Shown one piece after another: positions 4,742 through 29,605 of a stretch of DNA of 64,000 nt. The stretch comes from Promethearchaeota archaeon. GTDB taxonomy: Archaea; Asgardarchaeota; Thorarchaeia; Thorarchaeales; Thorarchaeaceae. How positions within the stretch are numbered: the stretch's first letter is position 1; the number at the start of each line of letters is the position of its first letter. Under the pieces are notes generated by a model. That model saw only the letters and a program-made list of their open reading frames with translations, searched no databases and had not been told where the DNA came from. The position numbers and the translations under genes are program-made. Where the stretch lies: contig WJMJ01000079.1 of the NCBI GenBank assembly GCA_014728035.1, positions 1 to 64,000 of the forward strand, in the 5' to 3' direction.

Positions 4742-7282
4742 ATGGCCAGGAAACGGGAATCAACAACTATTCAATCAACGCTTGGCGACTTGGTAGAGGC
4801 CGAGTCTAAAACCATTTCAAAGAAGGGGAAAAAAACGACAAAACGAAAGAAATCAACAAGATCAACGAAATCCTCATCCAAGCTTGACATGAAGGACTTG
4901 CCAGGAGTCGGAGCTAAGACCAGAGATAGCTTGATCGAAGCTGGATTCAAGACAGTGGAGAAGATAGCTAAATCTAAACCTACTGCAATTTCCAAGAAGG
5001 TCGATGGGATTGGTGAATCCACTGCTGAAACAATTGTTGAAGCTGCGAAAAAGATGGTACAAGCTAGCAAGCCAAAGAAATCTCGGAAGAAGAAATCAAC
5101 AGAATCCTCATCTAAGCTTGATATGAAGGAGTTACCAGGAGTCGGAGCTAAGACCAGAGATAGCTTGATTGAAGCTGGATTTGAAACGGTTGAGAAGATA
5201 GCAAAAACAAAACCTACTGCAATCTCCAAGAAGGTCGATGGGGTTGGTGAATCCACTGCTGAAACAATTGTTGAAGCTGCAAAAAAGATGGTAAAAGCAA
5301 GTACACCAAAGAAGACACGAAAGAAGAGCAAACCTACGAAGAGAACACCTTCTGCAGAAGAAGTATCAATTGGATTGGACGAGTTACCTGGTATCGGACC
5401 AAGCACGAAGGAGAAACTTATCGCAGCTGGTTATGACTCTCTATCTAAAATTGCATCTGCAAAACCGGCTACACTTGCCAAAGAAGTAGATGGTGTTGGG
5501 AAGAAGACTGCAAAAGATGCAATTGGTGAAGCTAAGAAACTCACAAAAAAGAAGCAACCAAAGACTCGTAAAAAGAAACCTAAACCTACTACTGTATCCG
5601 GTGATGAGCTTCGTTTGAAAGATTTACCGGGTATTGGAAAGAAAACAGCTGAAAAAATGGAAGAAGCTGGTTATGATTCAGTAGCACGGGTTGCTCGTTC
5701 AACTCCTGATTCAATTGCTAAAAGAGTCAGTGGGATAAGCACATCGAAAGCTAGTGAAATTATTGGTGTTGCAAAAGAGATGGTCAAAGCACAACAGATA
5801 CGAGAAATTGATAGGCCGGATATTACTGAGAAAGAAGAAATATCAGAATCTGAAGATACTGAACCAGCTAAGAAGGAAGAGAAGAAGAAACCAAAGTCAC
5901 AGAAAACTAAGAAAACCACGAAGACAAAGAAGACAAAAGAAAAAGAGAGTGATAAATCCAAAGTGACACCAAAAAAGAAGACTAAGAAGCGATCTAGAAA
6001 GAAAAAGAAGACTACTAAAACTCCACAACAAATTCTAGAAGAAAAAAGAGCGAAAATTGTCAAGAAGAAATCTGGATTACCCGTCCCGAAAACCATTATT
6101 GCCCTTACAAAAGAAATGAAGGCGAAATGGGACGCTGCCGATGCTCGTGAAGCGGCATATCAGGCTGGAGAATTATCTGAAGAAGAAATGAATGAAATTG
6201 AAGAAACCATAGAAGTTCTAGATTTAACTCGTAACGAAACCAAGGATAAAGTAGTTGATGTAGCTAGAGAGATACTCCAAGAAACTATGGTGACCGGCCG
6301 TCCTGCTTTTGAAATTCCTAAGAGGTCTTCTAGCAATATTGTATGGGATGAAATTCGAGATTTGCTTTTGTTAGGTATGGATACAGTTTCGAGACCATAT
6401 CATTCTCTTGGAAGTGTAGTGGATGCTACACGTACTGCAAGAGTGATGGAAATCATCTATCAACTGCTTGAATCGAATTTGCATGCCACAAAACGTGAGG
6501 TTTTCTATAGTGACGTAAATCTCTTCCGCGACCAGAAATATAGTGACCGCATACTTGAGGATGTTGCATCAATGTTGCATACTACTCGTGATAGTATCCA
6601 TGTTGTAGCATCTGCTAGAGGTTCTGCAATGGGTCGTGTTGTAATTCGAGATGGAGGTGACCGTATCGACCTTACTAAGATGGGTACGGGTGGTTGGGCA
6701 ATCACACCATTTCTAGACCAGGTGGAAATTATCGAAAGCGATGCTGAATACATTCTTCTTTCAGAGAAGGACGCAGCTGTAATGCGTCTTGCAGAAGCTA
6801 AATACTGGAATCGAGAACCATGTATTGTTCTTACTGGGAAGGGTTCAGGAGATATAGCAACAAGAGCCTTTCTTAAGAAACTGGTTAAGGAACTTGAAAT
6901 TCCTGCTTTTGCGTTAGTAGACTCGGATCCGTATGGGCATTATATTTACTCTGTATTTCTGCGAGGAAGCAAACGACTGAGTTACGAATCGCCATTTATT
7001 GCCACACCAGAGCTAAAATTACTTGGTGTACTCTCTAGAGATCTTGATGAATACGATATTCCAAAAGCGGTTCGAATACCAATGGAGCAGACTGACATTA
7101 AACGAGTCAAGGATATGATTGATGAACCATTTGTAAAGGCGAACAAAGAATGGGTTAAAGACCTGAAACTGATGCTTAAAATTAAAGAAAAGGCAGAAAT
7201 ACAAGCTTTTGCAAGCCACTCATTCAGCTTTCTAACAGATGAATATATCCCAACAAAACTAGAAACTGGGGACTGGATTTAG
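4742..7282 (+). CDS. top6A: DNA topoisomerase VI subunit A (Spo11 family) with a long N-terminal extension of four HhH domains
   Basis: The C-terminal ~360 aa contain TKREVFY (catalytic Tyr codon 6506-6508), Toprim SEKDA and DSDPYG, and KAEIQA. The N-terminal part has four LPG(V/I)G HhH units. Confidence 0.92.
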   Translation: MARKRESTTIQSTLGDLVEAESKTISKKGKKTTKRKKSTRSTKSSSKLDMKDLPGVGAKTRDSLIEAGFKTVEKIAKSKPTAISKKVDGIGESTAETIVEAAKKMVQASKPKKSRKKKSTESSSKLDMKELPGVGAKTRDSLIEAGFETVEKIAKTKPTAISKKVDGVGESTAETIVEAAKKMVKASTPKKTRKKSKPTKRTPSAEEVSIGLDELPGIGPSTKEKLIAAGYDSLSKIASAKPATLAKEVDGVGKKTAKDAIGEAKKLTKKKQPKTRKKKPKPTTVSGDELRLKDLPGIGKKTAEKMEEAGYDSVARVARSTPDSIAKRVSGISTSKASEIIGVAKEMVKAQQIREIDRPDITEKEEISESEDTEPAKKEEKKKPKSQKTKKTTKTKKTKEKESDKSKVTPKKKTKKRSRKKKKTTKTPQQILEEKRAKIVKKKSGLPVPKTIIALTKEMKAKWDAADAREAAYQAGELSEEEMNEIEETIEVLDLTRNETKDKVVDVAREILQETMVTGRPAFEIPKRSSSNIVWDEIRDLLLLGMDTVSRPYHSLGSVVDATRTARVMEIIYQLLESNLHATKREVFYSDVNLFRDQKYSDRILEDVASMLHTTRDSIHVVASARGSAMGRVVIRDGGDRIDLTKMGTGGWAITPFLDQVEIIESDAEYILLSEKDAAVMRLAEAKYWNREPCIVLTGKGSGDIATRAFLKKLVKELEIPAFALVDSDPYGHYIYSVFLRGSKRLSYESPFIATPELKLLGVLSRDLDEYDIPKAVRIPMEQTDIKRVKDMIDEPFVKANKEWVKDLKLMLKIKEKAEIQAFASHSFSFLTDEYIPTKLETGDWI
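4869..5293 (+). repeat. Intragenic tandem duplication (~190-nt unit, 234-nt period) encoding HhH domains 1 and 2
   Basis: 4869-5059 and 5103-5293 are near-identical. Both contain ccaggagtcggagctaagaccagagatagcttgat and ggtgaatccactgctgaaacaattgttgaagctgc. Confidence 0.95.
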
Positions 7283-25943: not shown

Positions 25944-27020
25944 CTGAATATACAACGACATCAACTGAAACGCAAAATTGCGAAACTAAAGGCGTACAAA
26001 GGTCGACATAGTTCATTTACCACATTGTATATTCCACCATCCAAAAATTTGATTGATGTAATCAGTTTTGTTCGTGATGAATTGGCTGGCGCTGAGAATA
26101 TCAAAAGCAAAGCAAATCGCAAAAACGTTCAAGATAATTTGAATGCTATTCTTACTGAACTTACCACTATCTCCGACCTTCCTGAAAATGGGATTGCTTT
26201 CTTTTTTGGTATTATCGAAGAAGGCGGAACAACTGAAGAGATTCGTGAAATCGTAGTCCCTCCAGCCCCAATTTCTCAGTTTATCTATCTATGTGGTAAA
26301 GAGTTCATCACGGAAGAACTCGAAGATATGGCTCAACCAAAAAGTCTGGTAGTTATTGTTCTTATTGAAGGTGGAAAGATGACGATTGGATATCTTCGTG
26401 GAAAGAGTATCGAGCTAATTCGGGATGATGATTTCTATATCATTGGGAAAACTCGTGCTGGAGGTCAGAGTGCAAAGAGATATCTTCGTTTAAGAGAGGA
26501 ACGTATGGATGCGTTCTTCAAGCATGTAGCTAAGACACTCAATGAATTACTTGTTGATAATGTTGACAATGTGGATGCTATCGTTTTGGGAGGAAATACA
26601 ATTCGAGCTCAAGAGTTTCTTGAACGAGGTGATCTTGACTATCGTCTTCGAGAAAAGGTTGTAGAGAATATTATTCCAGTGAGTGTCATTGACGAAACTG
26701 GCCTTTATCAAGCAATGAAAGAAGCATCAAGGCTCTTACGAGAAACGGAGATTTATGCAGAACGTGAGATGTGGGAAAGTTTCATGCAAGATTTGATGAA
26801 AGGCCATTCTACAGCTGCATACGGTGAAAAGGAAGTCATGGATGCATTACATCAAGGACGTATTGATACAATTCTGATATTGGAAGGAGACCCACGAATT
26901 GATGAATTAATAGATGAGGTAGAAAATTACGGGTCTGAAATTATGATATTCTCCCCTCAAACTGAGTCTGGTGCCCAATTGAAATCCTTTGGTGGTATAG
27001 CTGCAAAATTGAGATGGTAA
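25944..27020 (+). CDS. prf1: Peptide chain release factor aRF1
   Basis: NIKS, YLCGKEF (YxCxxxF), GGQS and FGGIAAKLR. The conserved N-terminus (KLKAYKGRHSSFTTLY) extends upstream of the ORF-track start at 26025 to CTG 25944 or ATA 25941. Confidence 0.9.
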   Translation: MNIQRHQLKRKIAKLKAYKGRHSSFTTLYIPPSKNLIDVISFVRDELAGAENIKSKANRKNVQDNLNAILTELTTISDLPENGIAFFFGIIEEGGTTEEIREIVVPPAPISQFIYLCGKEFITEELEDMAQPKSLVVIVLIEGGKMTIGYLRGKSIELIRDDDFYIIGKTRAGGQSAKRYLRLREERMDAFFKHVAKTLNELLVDNVDNVDAIVLGGNTIRAQEFLERGDLDYRLREKVVENIIPVSVIDETGLYQAMKEASRLLRETEIYAEREMWESFMQDLMKGHSTAAYGEKEVMDALHQGRIDTILILEGDPRIDELIDEVENYGSEIMIFSPQTESGAQLKSFGGIAAKLRW

Positions 27021-27022
27021 CA

Positions 27023-27439
27023 CTACCTATCTTTTGGTACCTTTGGGATGTCCTTCAGAGTCTTAATATCTTCAGACCATTTAGTAATTTCTTCAAGAAT
27101 AGTTTCCATGTATTGGCTAAGTGCATCATAGAATCTATGTAGATGTTCTGAACGTAATTTTCCAGACTTTGATCTATAATCATCAACTCGTTTTGGTAAT
27201 CCTTTTTCCCACTTTTTTAGAAGCAATTCAGCTTTTCTATCTTTTAGCAATTTTCTCGCAAGTCTGCTTTTTGAAGCTAATTCTATTAATTCTTCAATAC
27301 CTCTTTGTATTGATATTGTATTTACCACTAATTGCTTTGCATCAGCTTTCTTATCAGCACTACGAGAAGAATAGTATACATACTTGAGGTCTCGTTTTAC
27401 TAGTAATACTTGGTTTTGGAAGCTCCTCAATTCGCGCAT
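27023..27439 (-). CDS. Hypothetical basic helical protein
   Basis: 138-aa ORF with GAGGT upstream of the ATG. Last gene of the minus-strand run. Confidence 0.7.
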   Translation of the reverse strand: MRELRSFQNQVLLVKRDLKYVYYSSRSADKKADAKQLVVNTISIQRGIEELIELASKSRLARKLLKDRKAELLLKKWEKGLPKRVDDYRSKSGKLRSEHLHRFYDALSQYMETILEEITKWSEDIKTLKDIPKVPKDR

Positions 27440-27475
27440 GGTATTACCTCTGCATACAAAGACATTATTCTTTTG

Positions 27476-28126
27476 CTAATAGATTGAATATTGGCAAATT
27501 CCGTTTTTAGAATATGGGCACGGTCTGCACTTTTCGCCTGGTTCTGCTATTGGTTTTCTAGAACCAAACCAAATCTCATCCAAGCGTTTCAGTTCTCTCA
27601 GTATCCATTTTTGGTCATACTTCTGGGTGAAAGCTTCTCCAAAATCACATGATATACAATCTGTTGTATTTCTATTGTTTTCACAACGAGCGGCATGCTG
27701 TTGCAAACAATATATTATTACTAGTTTTGTTTTCGAGCAGGAGGCGCCGCTTTCTTGAATCGCTTGAGCATATAATGCAGCTTGGAACATGTCTTCTTTT
27801 CGAGCTTCTCTTGGTAGGTATTTGATTGGAAACTTTCTTTCTATCATCAGGTCAAGAATTGGTGCCTCTTCAAAATGAAGAACGGCCTGGTCAAATCTAC
27901 CTTTGTATCTATGGCCAATTGAAATTACTGATTCTTCACTAAACAAAAAATATTGCTTATCCCTGACCTTGGAGGGTGTTTGTTTGAGAAATGAATTGAG
28001 ATCTATACGTGCTGGTCTAGCTCGGAACATAATGGATTTAACCGAACCTGGGATACCTCCTGAAATCAGAATTATAAGAATGATAGTGCATATAATAAAT
28101 AATCCAAGGAACAATGCAGACGACAA
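27476..28126 (-). CDS. Cas4-like PD-(D/E)XK nuclease, C-terminal part with an N-terminal TM anchor
   Basis: N-terminal hydrophobic helix, RecB-like motifs SEE, GRFD, IERK and QAALY, and C-terminal CRPCPYSKNGIC. Confidence 0.8.
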   Translation of the reverse strand: MSSALFLGLFIICTIILIILISGGIPGSVKSIMFRARPARIDLNSFLKQTPSKVRDKQYFLFSEESVISIGHRYKGRFDQAVLHFEEAPILDLMIERKFPIKYLPREARKEDMFQAALYAQAIQESGASCSKTKLVIIYCLQQHAARCENNRNTTDCISCDFGEAFTQKYDQKWILRELKRLDEIWFGSRKPIAEPGEKCRPCPYSKNGICQYSIY

Positions 28127-28130
28127 GTAA

Positions 28131-28382
28131 TCACATCCAAATCCAAAATATTGCAGAAATAATAATGATGACCAATAGCAGTATGAGAATCGTCCTGTTT
28201 GCAGCTGATTTTGATACTTCTACAGCAATTTTACTGTGTAAACGTGTTCCTCCACGACTTGCTTCCGATGAAGTTCCACCGTGTAATTGTTTAAGAAACA
28301 AACGGTATTCACAATAGAATTGAATCCTAAGATCGGATACATTTCTAAATGAAGATATTCCTTTTCGATCTGTTTTATTCAC
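28131..28382 (-). CDS. Cas4-like nuclease N-terminal segment with a C-terminal TM anchor
   Basis: VSDLRIQFYCEYRLFL (first Fe-S Cys motif) and GTRLH, then ILILLLVIIIISAIFWIW. Confidence 0.72.
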   Translation of the reverse strand: MNKTDRKGISSFRNVSDLRIQFYCEYRLFLKQLHGGTSSEASRGGTRLHSKIAVEVSKSAANRTILILLLVIIIISAIFWIWM

Positions 28383-29605
28383 GAACTTGCACCTTCTTTT
28401 TGTGTGGATATCCCTTGAAAAGGTACACTACTATTTTCGTTGATATATTTGAGAGTTGGAATGCTCAGAATTACGAATATTAGTGGAACAACTAAAGCTA
28501 ACTGCAAATTCCATCCTGGCAAATCTGCAAAGAATCCAGTTAGTACTGGCCCAACTGCCCCACCAAAGAAGGTAAAAATAGCTGAGATACCAAATAGTCT
28601 CCCTTCCATTCCAACCGGAATTATTTTCGCATAGAGTGCTCTAGTAAGAGTAACATTCCCACCTAGTGCAAAACCAGCAACGCATGTAACCGCGATAATT
28701 GGCATTAGCGCACCAAAAATAACAATGCTAGCAAATCCAACTGCCCACACTCCTAAGTTAATCCCTTGAATTCTAACTATTCCATATTTATCTCCTAAAT
28801 GTCCTTGAGCGTATCCCCCAATTATTGCAAAAGGTAATGCTAATCCTACGACAAAAGCAATATTGTCCAATGGAATTAATAGTACCTGATTTGCAATCAA
28901 TGATGCAAAAGTCATAATAGTTGAAATAGCATCCCCCCATAGAATTGAACCTAGCAAGTACATTTTGATTGATGTGTTATCCTTAATCTCATGAAGAATC
29001 TCTGCCAAGTTTGGATTTTCTATTTGGGCTTCCTTCGGTAAATCTTTCAATAACACTGCTGGAATTAGTGCAAATAGGATAAGAAATAATCCAATGAAAA
29101 TCAATGCATGATTTCTTGATGCCAATCTTTCTATTATGACTGCTCCTCCCGCGCCAATTGCACCACCAATATATCCGAATACTATACCAATTCCTGAGAG
29201 CGCCCCCATATTTTTCTCTTCTCCTTCAGATGCTAGGTATGAATTTACTGCAGTCCAACCAGTCTGGATTCCTATTGACATCAGAGTGAACAACAGGACA
29301 AGACCCGAAAGAGAAGTGTTCAATCGCGTCATCATTATTATTGATAGACCTGCAACAAGCACAGAAATCAAAATCAGTATTCTTCTGCAAAAAGAATCTG
29401 AAGGAGCTCTATCTATTAGCAAACCAACTATAGGTGTCCACAACGCAGCGATTGACCCAGTAACCAAAGGTAATACACCAACCAGTGTATTAGTTCCCCC
29501 TGCACCAATAATCATCAAAGGCAAATATAACGCATTTATTGCAAATGCAACAGGTGTTGATGCAAAGTCATAAAATGCCCAGATTATTTTTTCGCGCTGA
29601 CGCAT
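28379..29605 (-). CDS. MFS transporter (UMF1/ATG22-like)
   Basis: WAFYDFA N-terminus, about 12 TM helices and RALYAKIIP...FG. Confidence 0.85.
   Translation of the reverse strand: MRQREKIIWAFYDFASTPVAFAINALYLPLMIIGAGGTNTLVGVLPLVTGSIAALWTPIVGLLIDRAPSDSFCRRILILISVLVAGLSIIMMTRLNTSLSGLVLLFTLMSIGIQTGWTAVNSYLASEGEEKNMGALSGIGIVFGYIGGAIGAGGAVIIERLASRNHALIFIGLFLILFALIPAVLLKDLPKEAQIENPNLAEILHEIKDNTSIKMYLLGSILWGDAISTIMTFASLIANQVLLIPLDNIAFVVGLALPFAIIGGYAQGHLGDKYGIVRIQGINLGVWAVGFASIVIFGALMPIIAVTCVAGFALGGNVTLTRALYAKIIPVGMEGRLFGISAIFTFFGGAVGPVLTGFFADLPGWNLQLALVVPLIFVILSIPTLKYINENSSVPFQGISTQKEGASS

Follow-up and report, generated by a model that had tools for sequence, protein, structure and literature searches.

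The iron-sulphur (Fe-S) nucleases Cas4, AddB, Dna2 and EXO5 are known as single chains, in which the cluster staples together the two ends of one domain. In EXO5, helix alpha-4 is a conditionally folded helix that closes the channel for single-stranded DNA (ssDNA) (PMC12004521; PMC8710748). The solo-Cas4 of M. mazei favours supercoiled double-stranded DNA and cuts without its cluster (PMC12501428). Split or membrane-anchored forms are not mentioned in PMC5704561 or PMC12501428, and a targeted literature search of partial coverage retrieved no paper on such forms of Cas4 or EXO5. In the first 64,000 bp of contig WJMJ01000079.1 of a Promethearchaeota archaeon (Thorarchaeaceae; assembly GCA_014728035.1), hereafter called the window, two adjacent open reading frames (ORFs) together rebuild one Fe-S nuclease of the Cas4/AddB superfamily, as shown by their complementary invariant motifs and their alignment to single-chain relatives. 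Here, in the majority of the genomes of one Asgard family, the staple and the putative active-site lid would be divided between two separate membrane-bound chains.

The pair had been described in a first-pass annotation of the window as a split, doubly membrane-anchored, Cas4-like nuclease in an operon with a transporter of the major facilitator superfamily (MFS). The motifs, helices, junction and overlaps given there all hold. The features of the locus are listed in Table 1. The GTG start of the small ORF overlaps the TGA of the MFS gene (GTGA at 28379-28382), and the small gene is joined to the large one by TGA-TTAC-TTG, where the Shine-Dalgarno (SD)-like GGATGTGA overlaps the small-gene stop. 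The large ORF has no stop in its frame for 31 codons upstream of the TTG, giving 247 aa from stop to stop. A scan for promoters and terminators, designed for bacterial promoters, gave results at chance level only. The absence of a CRISPR link was borne out: the window holds no CRISPR array, the cas1-cas4 genes of the same assembly sit on a different contig (C104), and linkage to cas1/cas2 or an array was found neither in the window nor in the extended loci compared below.

Table 1. Coordinates of the nuclease pair and adjoining features in the window
Feature	Position	Strand	Remarks
MFS/Atg22-like transporter, 408 aa	28379..29605	minus	PF07690 E 5e-23, PF11700 E 1.5e-16
Small subunit ORF, 83 aa	28131..28382	minus	GTG start; N-terminal Fe-S Cys, GxxLH, C-terminal anchor
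Large subunit ORF, 216 aa	27476..28126	minus	TTG start; N-terminal anchor, nuclease core, 3 Fe-S Cys
Translational-coupling junction small/large	28124..28138	minus	SD-like GGATG over small-gene TGA, 4-nt gap, TTG start
138-aa helical protein, no family assigned	27023..27439	minus	3' of the pair at nearly all loci examined

The small ORF contains VSDL..Q..C24E and G45xxLH49 and ends, without a tail, in a hydrophobic helix (approximately residues 65-83; Kyte-Doolittle value (KD) 3.1). The large ORF has such a helix near its start (approximately residues 3-21, KD 3.1), followed by basic residues, the core motifs E64, G76-R-F-D79, E96-x-K98 and Q115-xxx-Y119, a four-cysteine insert (C140/C148/C157/C160) that is a probable Zn site, and the C-terminal Fe-S cysteines C200/C203/C211. 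Only across the two chains is the set of 1 + 3 Fe-S cysteines complete (C24 plus C200/C203/C211). Among 28-29 homologues per gene, with a mean column identity of 37-43% overall, C24, G45 and H49 of the small subunit are invariant; in the large one (29 sequences) the same is true of D79, E96, K98, Q115, Y119 and each of the seven cysteines, those of the four-cysteine insert included. The signature Q..CE at the first cysteine occurs in 28/28 small-gene homologues (CG in one), and W...R ahead of the C-terminal cysteines in 27 of the 29 large-gene homologues. The ratio of nonsynonymous to synonymous substitution (dN/dS) in close pairs was 0.38-0.40 for the small and 0.11-0.24 for the large gene, indicating purifying selection on both.

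A total of 49 distinct Thorarchaeota loci carrying both genes were compared; these loci are kin and do not count as independent. The pair was fused in none of them (0/49). The frame offset from small to large gene was -1 at 28 loci, +1 at 19 and 0 at 2; the small gene stopped at TGA or TAA (its end being GGTGA at 29/49), the large gene had its own start codon, and both helices and the four-cysteine insert were present at 49/49, so each half has one anchor of its own, as originally proposed. The fusion or indel that the first-pass annotation had named as a possible refutation was thus looked for across homologues and not seen. Close homologues from two protein libraries likewise included no fused form; there the word-indexed homologue search covered records of up to 462 aa and the exhaustive representative search all lengths, and neither half was found in other families among 60 relatives searched. 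Records of 228-285 aa were considered as fusions and rejected, as their extra length is a wrongly called upstream extension that lacks the motif of the small gene. Both ORFs are separate, coupled and conserved genes, whose motifs complement each other and each of which codes for a single hydrophobic helix.

The small gene was present in 67 and the large gene in 66 of the 81 genomes of the family. Both halves were absent from an otherwise intact locus in G012, G026, G035 and G015 (genomes 93-99% complete), and in G037 neither half was found beside the 138-aa gene. The two genes behave as a unit, and since the pair is gone or broken in several genomes (e.g. G004, G214), the enzyme is dispensable.

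Several degraded or mis-annotated copies were encountered. In G004 (L107) a 66-aa remnant of the small gene without its anchor remains and the large gene is gone, and in G034 (L006) the small gene has an internal TAA. The small gene of G214 is broken in its membrane-helix part by an element of 8.1 kb (L174:457-8604) that has terminal inverted repeats and codes for a 723-aa TnpB/Cas12f-like protein (PF07282) and a 1788-aa protein without Pfam match. Close homologues in the databases are from Candidatus Thorarchaeota and mostly labelled 'hypothetical protein'. The database record of the large gene described here starts at Met33 (184 aa), so that the anchor is lost; other large-gene records carry 30-70 spurious upstream residues, showing that gene callers mis-start.

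The AlphaFold model of the large chain (predicted local distance difference test (pLDDT) 87) has a fold that matches Cas4, EXO5 and MGME1, with Z 9.7, root-mean-square deviation (rmsd) 4.0 and 134 aligned residues against 7MI4 (Cas4-Cas1), and Z 7.8, rmsd 4.7 and 143 aligned against 7LW7 (EXO5). Its best match in the Atlas was an archaeal Exo5-like cluster (template modelling score 0.72); Foldseek returned nothing at E <= 0.001 (best 1.1e-3). The model of both chains together had a score of 0.77, the best control one of 0.07. Among solved complexes 58 of 80 attain this mark, among mismatched pairs 2 of 110; because two parts of one split gene may attain it through their resemblance to solved single chains, the score shows fit, not binding. 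The runs shared at least 72% of contacts, with a partner pLDDT of at least 68. C24 and H49 of the small and D79, C203 and C211 of the large chain lie in the confident predicted interface; neither membrane helix figures in the contacts listed for it. The two halves are thus predicted to dock. As to topology, the small chain has next to no tail beyond its helix, and basic residues follow the large-chain helix and almost none precede it, which suggests that the small chain is tail-anchored with its N-terminus in, and the large chain signal-anchored with its N-terminus out and C-terminus in. By the positive-inside rule both soluble parts would face the cytoplasm, consistent with the same-face arrangement proposed at first.

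Searched alone in Pfam, each half gave no useful match, and the scores on a read-through homologue were below the cut-offs of PF09810 (12.2 vs 25 bits) and PF01930 (12.9 vs 22.7); TIGR00372 also remained below its cut-off (16.7 vs 65 bits). When the in-frame read-through homologue L010 (TGA as W) was folded from its sequence alone, the pLDDT was unusably low at 47. The best PDB match of the large-subunit profile was human EXO5 (E 0.0013). The next relatives in the exhaustive search were soluble single-chain proteins of 240-280 aa; most single-chain relatives tested pass the PF09810 cut-off, and the nearest match EXO5 at 3e-21 vs SSO0001 at 6.7e-5. The small ORF aligned to the N-terminus of the single-chain EXO5-like family (hhalign, 96.9%, E 1.5e-10), an alignment on which the first-pass annotation had made its reading depend, and the large ORF to the same family at 99.7% (E 2.6e-25). 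In a tree of 55 of 83 rows and 171 columns of the soluble core, without helices and without outgroup, the Thorarchaeota pair (100/99) sits with short and long EXO5-like proteins, and a 100/99 branch parts these from canonical Cas4 and a membrane Cas4-type family described below. The tree places the pair on the EXO5-like side as a whole, at no definite position within it. On these comparisons the pair is classed as EXO5-like, though formally outside PF09810; the genome itself has no PF09810 match. The Cas4-type identity given initially therefore stands for the superfamily fold and motifs and not for Cas4 proper, the EXO5-like branch being nearest.

With EXO5 and its 240-280-aa archaeal relatives the pair shares V(S/T)DL..Q..CE, the GxxxH helix, the GxxD-ExK-QxxLY core, W...R before the last three cysteines and the 1 + 3 Fe-S cysteines. 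Some short single-chain EXO5 relatives also have a four-cysteine insert at the same place, with other spacing. By alignment C24 corresponds to EXO5 C92 and GxxLH to G117-H121 (numbering set by the T88E construct). This stretch falls within the crossover helix alpha-4 and the gene cut comes just after it; the small subunit would thus hold the channel lid plus one cluster ligand. The pair differs from EXO5 (PF09810; human, PDB 7LW7-7LWA), which is single-chain and soluble, in consisting of two polypeptides that are both membrane-anchored, and in lacking the long helical insert of eukaryote-type EXO5 and any conserved counterpart of the DNA and lid residues E125, R164 and R200 (PMC8710748). With Cas4 and solo-Cas4 (PF01930, TIGR00372, COG1468; SSO0001, 4IC1; type I-C Cas4, 8D3L; Cas4-Cas1, 7MI4) it has in common the fold and the catalytic and Fe-S motifs, and with solo-Cas4 the location apart from cas genes. 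In contrast to Cas4 it is on a separate branch, split, anchored and under the Cas4 cut-offs.

The same layout exists in a widespread membrane Cas4-type family from Anaerolineae, Thermoplasmatota and others, with the cut and gene order as in the Thorarchaeota pair: a small gene with the first cysteine, GxxxH and a helix at its C-terminal end is coupled to a large gene with a helix at its N-terminal end, the catalytic core and three cysteines. The small partner is upstream in Anaerolineae, Thermoplasmatales and other examples. Unlike the pair, this family passes PF01930, is without the four-cysteine insert and has fused forms, with approximately four internal helices in L083:137-1150 (G172) and approximately two in P0147; the CE signature (0/6) and W...R (0/41) are missing from it. 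In the tree it (98/88) groups with canonical Cas4, and a single clade of both membrane groups was rejected (approximately unbiased (AU) test, p-AU 0.00735; 55 rows, 171 columns, helices removed), a test to be read with the long branches in mind. The hhalign figures for the Cas4-type family were lower than those for EXO5-like proteins (large subunit 95.8% vs 99.7%; small subunit 74.4% vs 96.9%), and three segments favoured EXO5-like over Cas4-type (1.16 vs 0.68, 0.85 vs 0.43 and 1.02 vs 0.22). We consider it likely that Thorarchaeota acquired the layout on their own, apart from the membrane Cas4-type family; the long stem branch and the lack of an outgroup are caveats to this reading.

The main competing history is that the pair is a diverged member of the membrane Cas4 family, the anchors having arisen once, or a chimera whose helix-stop/start-helix cassette came from that family. 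The identical cut position, gene order and coupling in the Anaerolineae and Thermoplasmatota pairs would fit such a history, as would the existence of fused two-helix and four-helix forms and the 16-column strand after the second anchor, which scored -0.04 per column against the Cas4-type membrane family and -1.19 against EXO5-like proteins. However, the remaining three segments, the hhalign figures and the AU test (p 0.007) all favour EXO5-like, and the strand motif is also found in canonical Cas4s, so that it may be ancestral. The Cas4-like strand before GxxD could reflect either ancestry or chimerism; overall, a single origin or chimera seems rather unlikely.

A copy of the Cas4-type pair was also seen in the present assembly: contig C112 (L031:1058-1845) carries a second two-gene, two-anchor nuclease pair, in the gene order eRF1-like, small, large, ABCE1-like, which resembles a Thermoplasmatales genome. 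This 5.6-kb contig may be contamination. The N-terminal helix is present in 76 of 87 homologue records of its Cas4-type protein. In the Anaerolineae-type loci L075 and L076 the order is ssb, DUF3467, a 220-aa gene, the Cas4-type pair, NAD kinase, a further gene and an SMC/RecN-like gene.

Taken together, the pair probably encodes an obligate heterodimeric, CRISPR-independent, EXO5-like 4Fe-4S PD-(D/E)xK DNase at the cytoplasmic face of the membrane. Coupled translation and shared membrane anchoring would bring the small and large chains together, and the assembled pair alone would complete the Fe-S site (1 + 3 Cys). Assembly would close the GxxLH lid helix of the small chain over the active site, after which the pair may cut DNA, by analogy with EXO5 most likely at single-stranded ends. 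Some observations weigh against this. The motif S-6x-GxxD is present in 26/29 sequences of the pair and 30/41 of the Cas4-type membrane family and in 1/30 EXO5-like proteins, and the Thorarchaeota stem branch is long (1.05). As the equivalents of E125, R164 and R200 are not conserved, substrate and polarity may differ from EXO5; given the M. mazei solo-Cas4 (PMC12501428), an ssDNA preference and dependence on the cluster cannot be assumed. The neighbouring genes are also without a direct functional pointer.

For the biological role of the heterodimer, the likeliest job is a non-essential housekeeping one, the trimming or clearing of DNA ends and fragments at the membrane in repair or replication, which we put forward tentatively. 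It is supported by the single copy and fixed synteny of the locus, and one single-chain relative abuts nurA. Ranked below it is the degradation or processing of incoming foreign DNA at the membrane, from virus injection or from uptake for food or recombination, as suggested in part by the first-pass annotation. Membrane tethering of a DNase evolved repeatedly and fits a target that crosses the membrane, solo-Cas4 genes have been proposed to act in defence or repair (PMC5704561), and the pair is dispensable, being lost or disrupted in several genomes. On the other hand, the gene pair is single-copy in a stable housekeeping synteny, and 21 extended loci (compared by BLAST clustering, with neighbours annotated from this window only) contained no defence island, pilus or competence gene. 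The processing of incoming nucleic acid received no specific support and we regard it as doubtful. Models of defence systems gave no match beyond weak Cas4 models, and relatives of the large gene in viral contigs were not found with this query.

Still lower ranks a working partnership with the adjacent MFS protein, for instance in nucleic-acid breakdown and nucleoside salvage. The stop-start overlap in this genome speaks for it, and the arrangement is old: in 9 of the 10 genomes where the MFS orthologue was found, which belong to several genera, it lies immediately 5' of the small gene. However, the orthologue was found in 10/81 family genomes with this query, vs 67 and 66 for the small and large genes, and at least 56 genomes retain the pair without an MFS orthologue found by this query. 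MFS carriers transport small solutes, not DNA. As an obligatory link the partnership proposed at first is largely refuted, and in any form it is improbable; the MFS gene looks like an old neighbour that was lost in most lineages, not a partner. Equally improbable is that the pair is a former nuclease turned into a membrane metal or redox sensor that uses the Fe-S and four-cysteine sites: the eight invariant cysteines and the lack of conservation at the DNA-contact residues of EXO5 would suit a sensor, but D79, E96, K98, Q115, Y119 and H49 are invariant in 28-29 diverged homologues. Finally, an assembly indel, a pseudogene, a programmed frameshift or read-through of one gene, for which the 31 open codons upstream of the large ORF and the in-frame TGA junction at two loci could be cited, is excluded for practical purposes by the lack of any fusion, the three offsets, the TGA/TAA stops, the own starts and the purifying selection.

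Three results come from tests made in this analysis: the MFS link fails, the two halves are lost together, and the evidence favours two origins of the layout. A layout that arose twice would point to selection for a DNase at the inner membrane face. A more speculative generalisation, possible at best, is that a soluble Fe-S nuclease was twice made two-subunit and doubly anchored at the same cut, in one case from Cas4 and in the other, in Asgard archaea, from the EXO5 lineage, with the lid and one cluster ligand on a separate small membrane protein that would gate activity by assembly in the membrane, and a ring that might open and so be loaded onto DNA lacking free ends. DNA processing at the membrane would then include a step so far unrecognised. 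The pair, small as it is, should lend itself to reconstitution from two soluble fragments, which makes the role of CRISPR-independent Cas4/EXO5-like nucleases directly testable; the interest is tempered by a gene that is dispensable and a function that is only inferred.

The pair is a single-copy locus whose fixed neighbourhood consists of pheST, aRF1-like, VTT, CpXC and inositol-phosphate synthase genes. Downstream of it the 138-aa gene is present at nearly every locus, yet stays where the pair is lost, and a role of its product as a third subunit was rejected on this ground. It is probably co-transcribed with the pair. Outside the family, where 54/59 genomes have the protein, it was found in a single genome of the same order, and the search of other Asgard families gave none; it has no family match in Atlas or Pfam, and a dN/dS of 0.03-0.06 between close pairs indicates that its gene is under strong purifying selection.

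Single-chain EXO5 proteins also occur in Asgard archaea. Family f27 (L039:1450-2394, L040, L069, L074; homologues labelled Heimdallarchaeota) has a full-length eukaryote-type EXO5 of 310-320 aa, which matches human EXO5 at E 3e-21 and falls into a single group (100/99) with EXO5 of plants and homologues from Methanobacterium. The literature search found no paper covering both Exo5 and Asgard. At a set of two loci (L065:3928-5783, L128:4001-7672), a short EXO5-like single-chain relative overlaps nurA in one Asgard lineage and precedes ribonucleotide reductase in another genome.

Elsewhere in the window, the aRF1-like ORF (26025-27020) has 331 aa from a TTG, vs approximately 359 aa in most relatives. 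Between pheS and aRF1 lies a DEDDh 3'-5' exonuclease gene (PF00929; 25254-25811), which among the 21 loci compared occupies this place in the present genome only. The Topo VI A gene (4742-7282) has a long N-terminal extension of repeats resembling the helix-hairpin-helix (HhH) with Lys-rich linkers, and this repeat extension accounts for the 233-nt direct repeat at 4861-5327.

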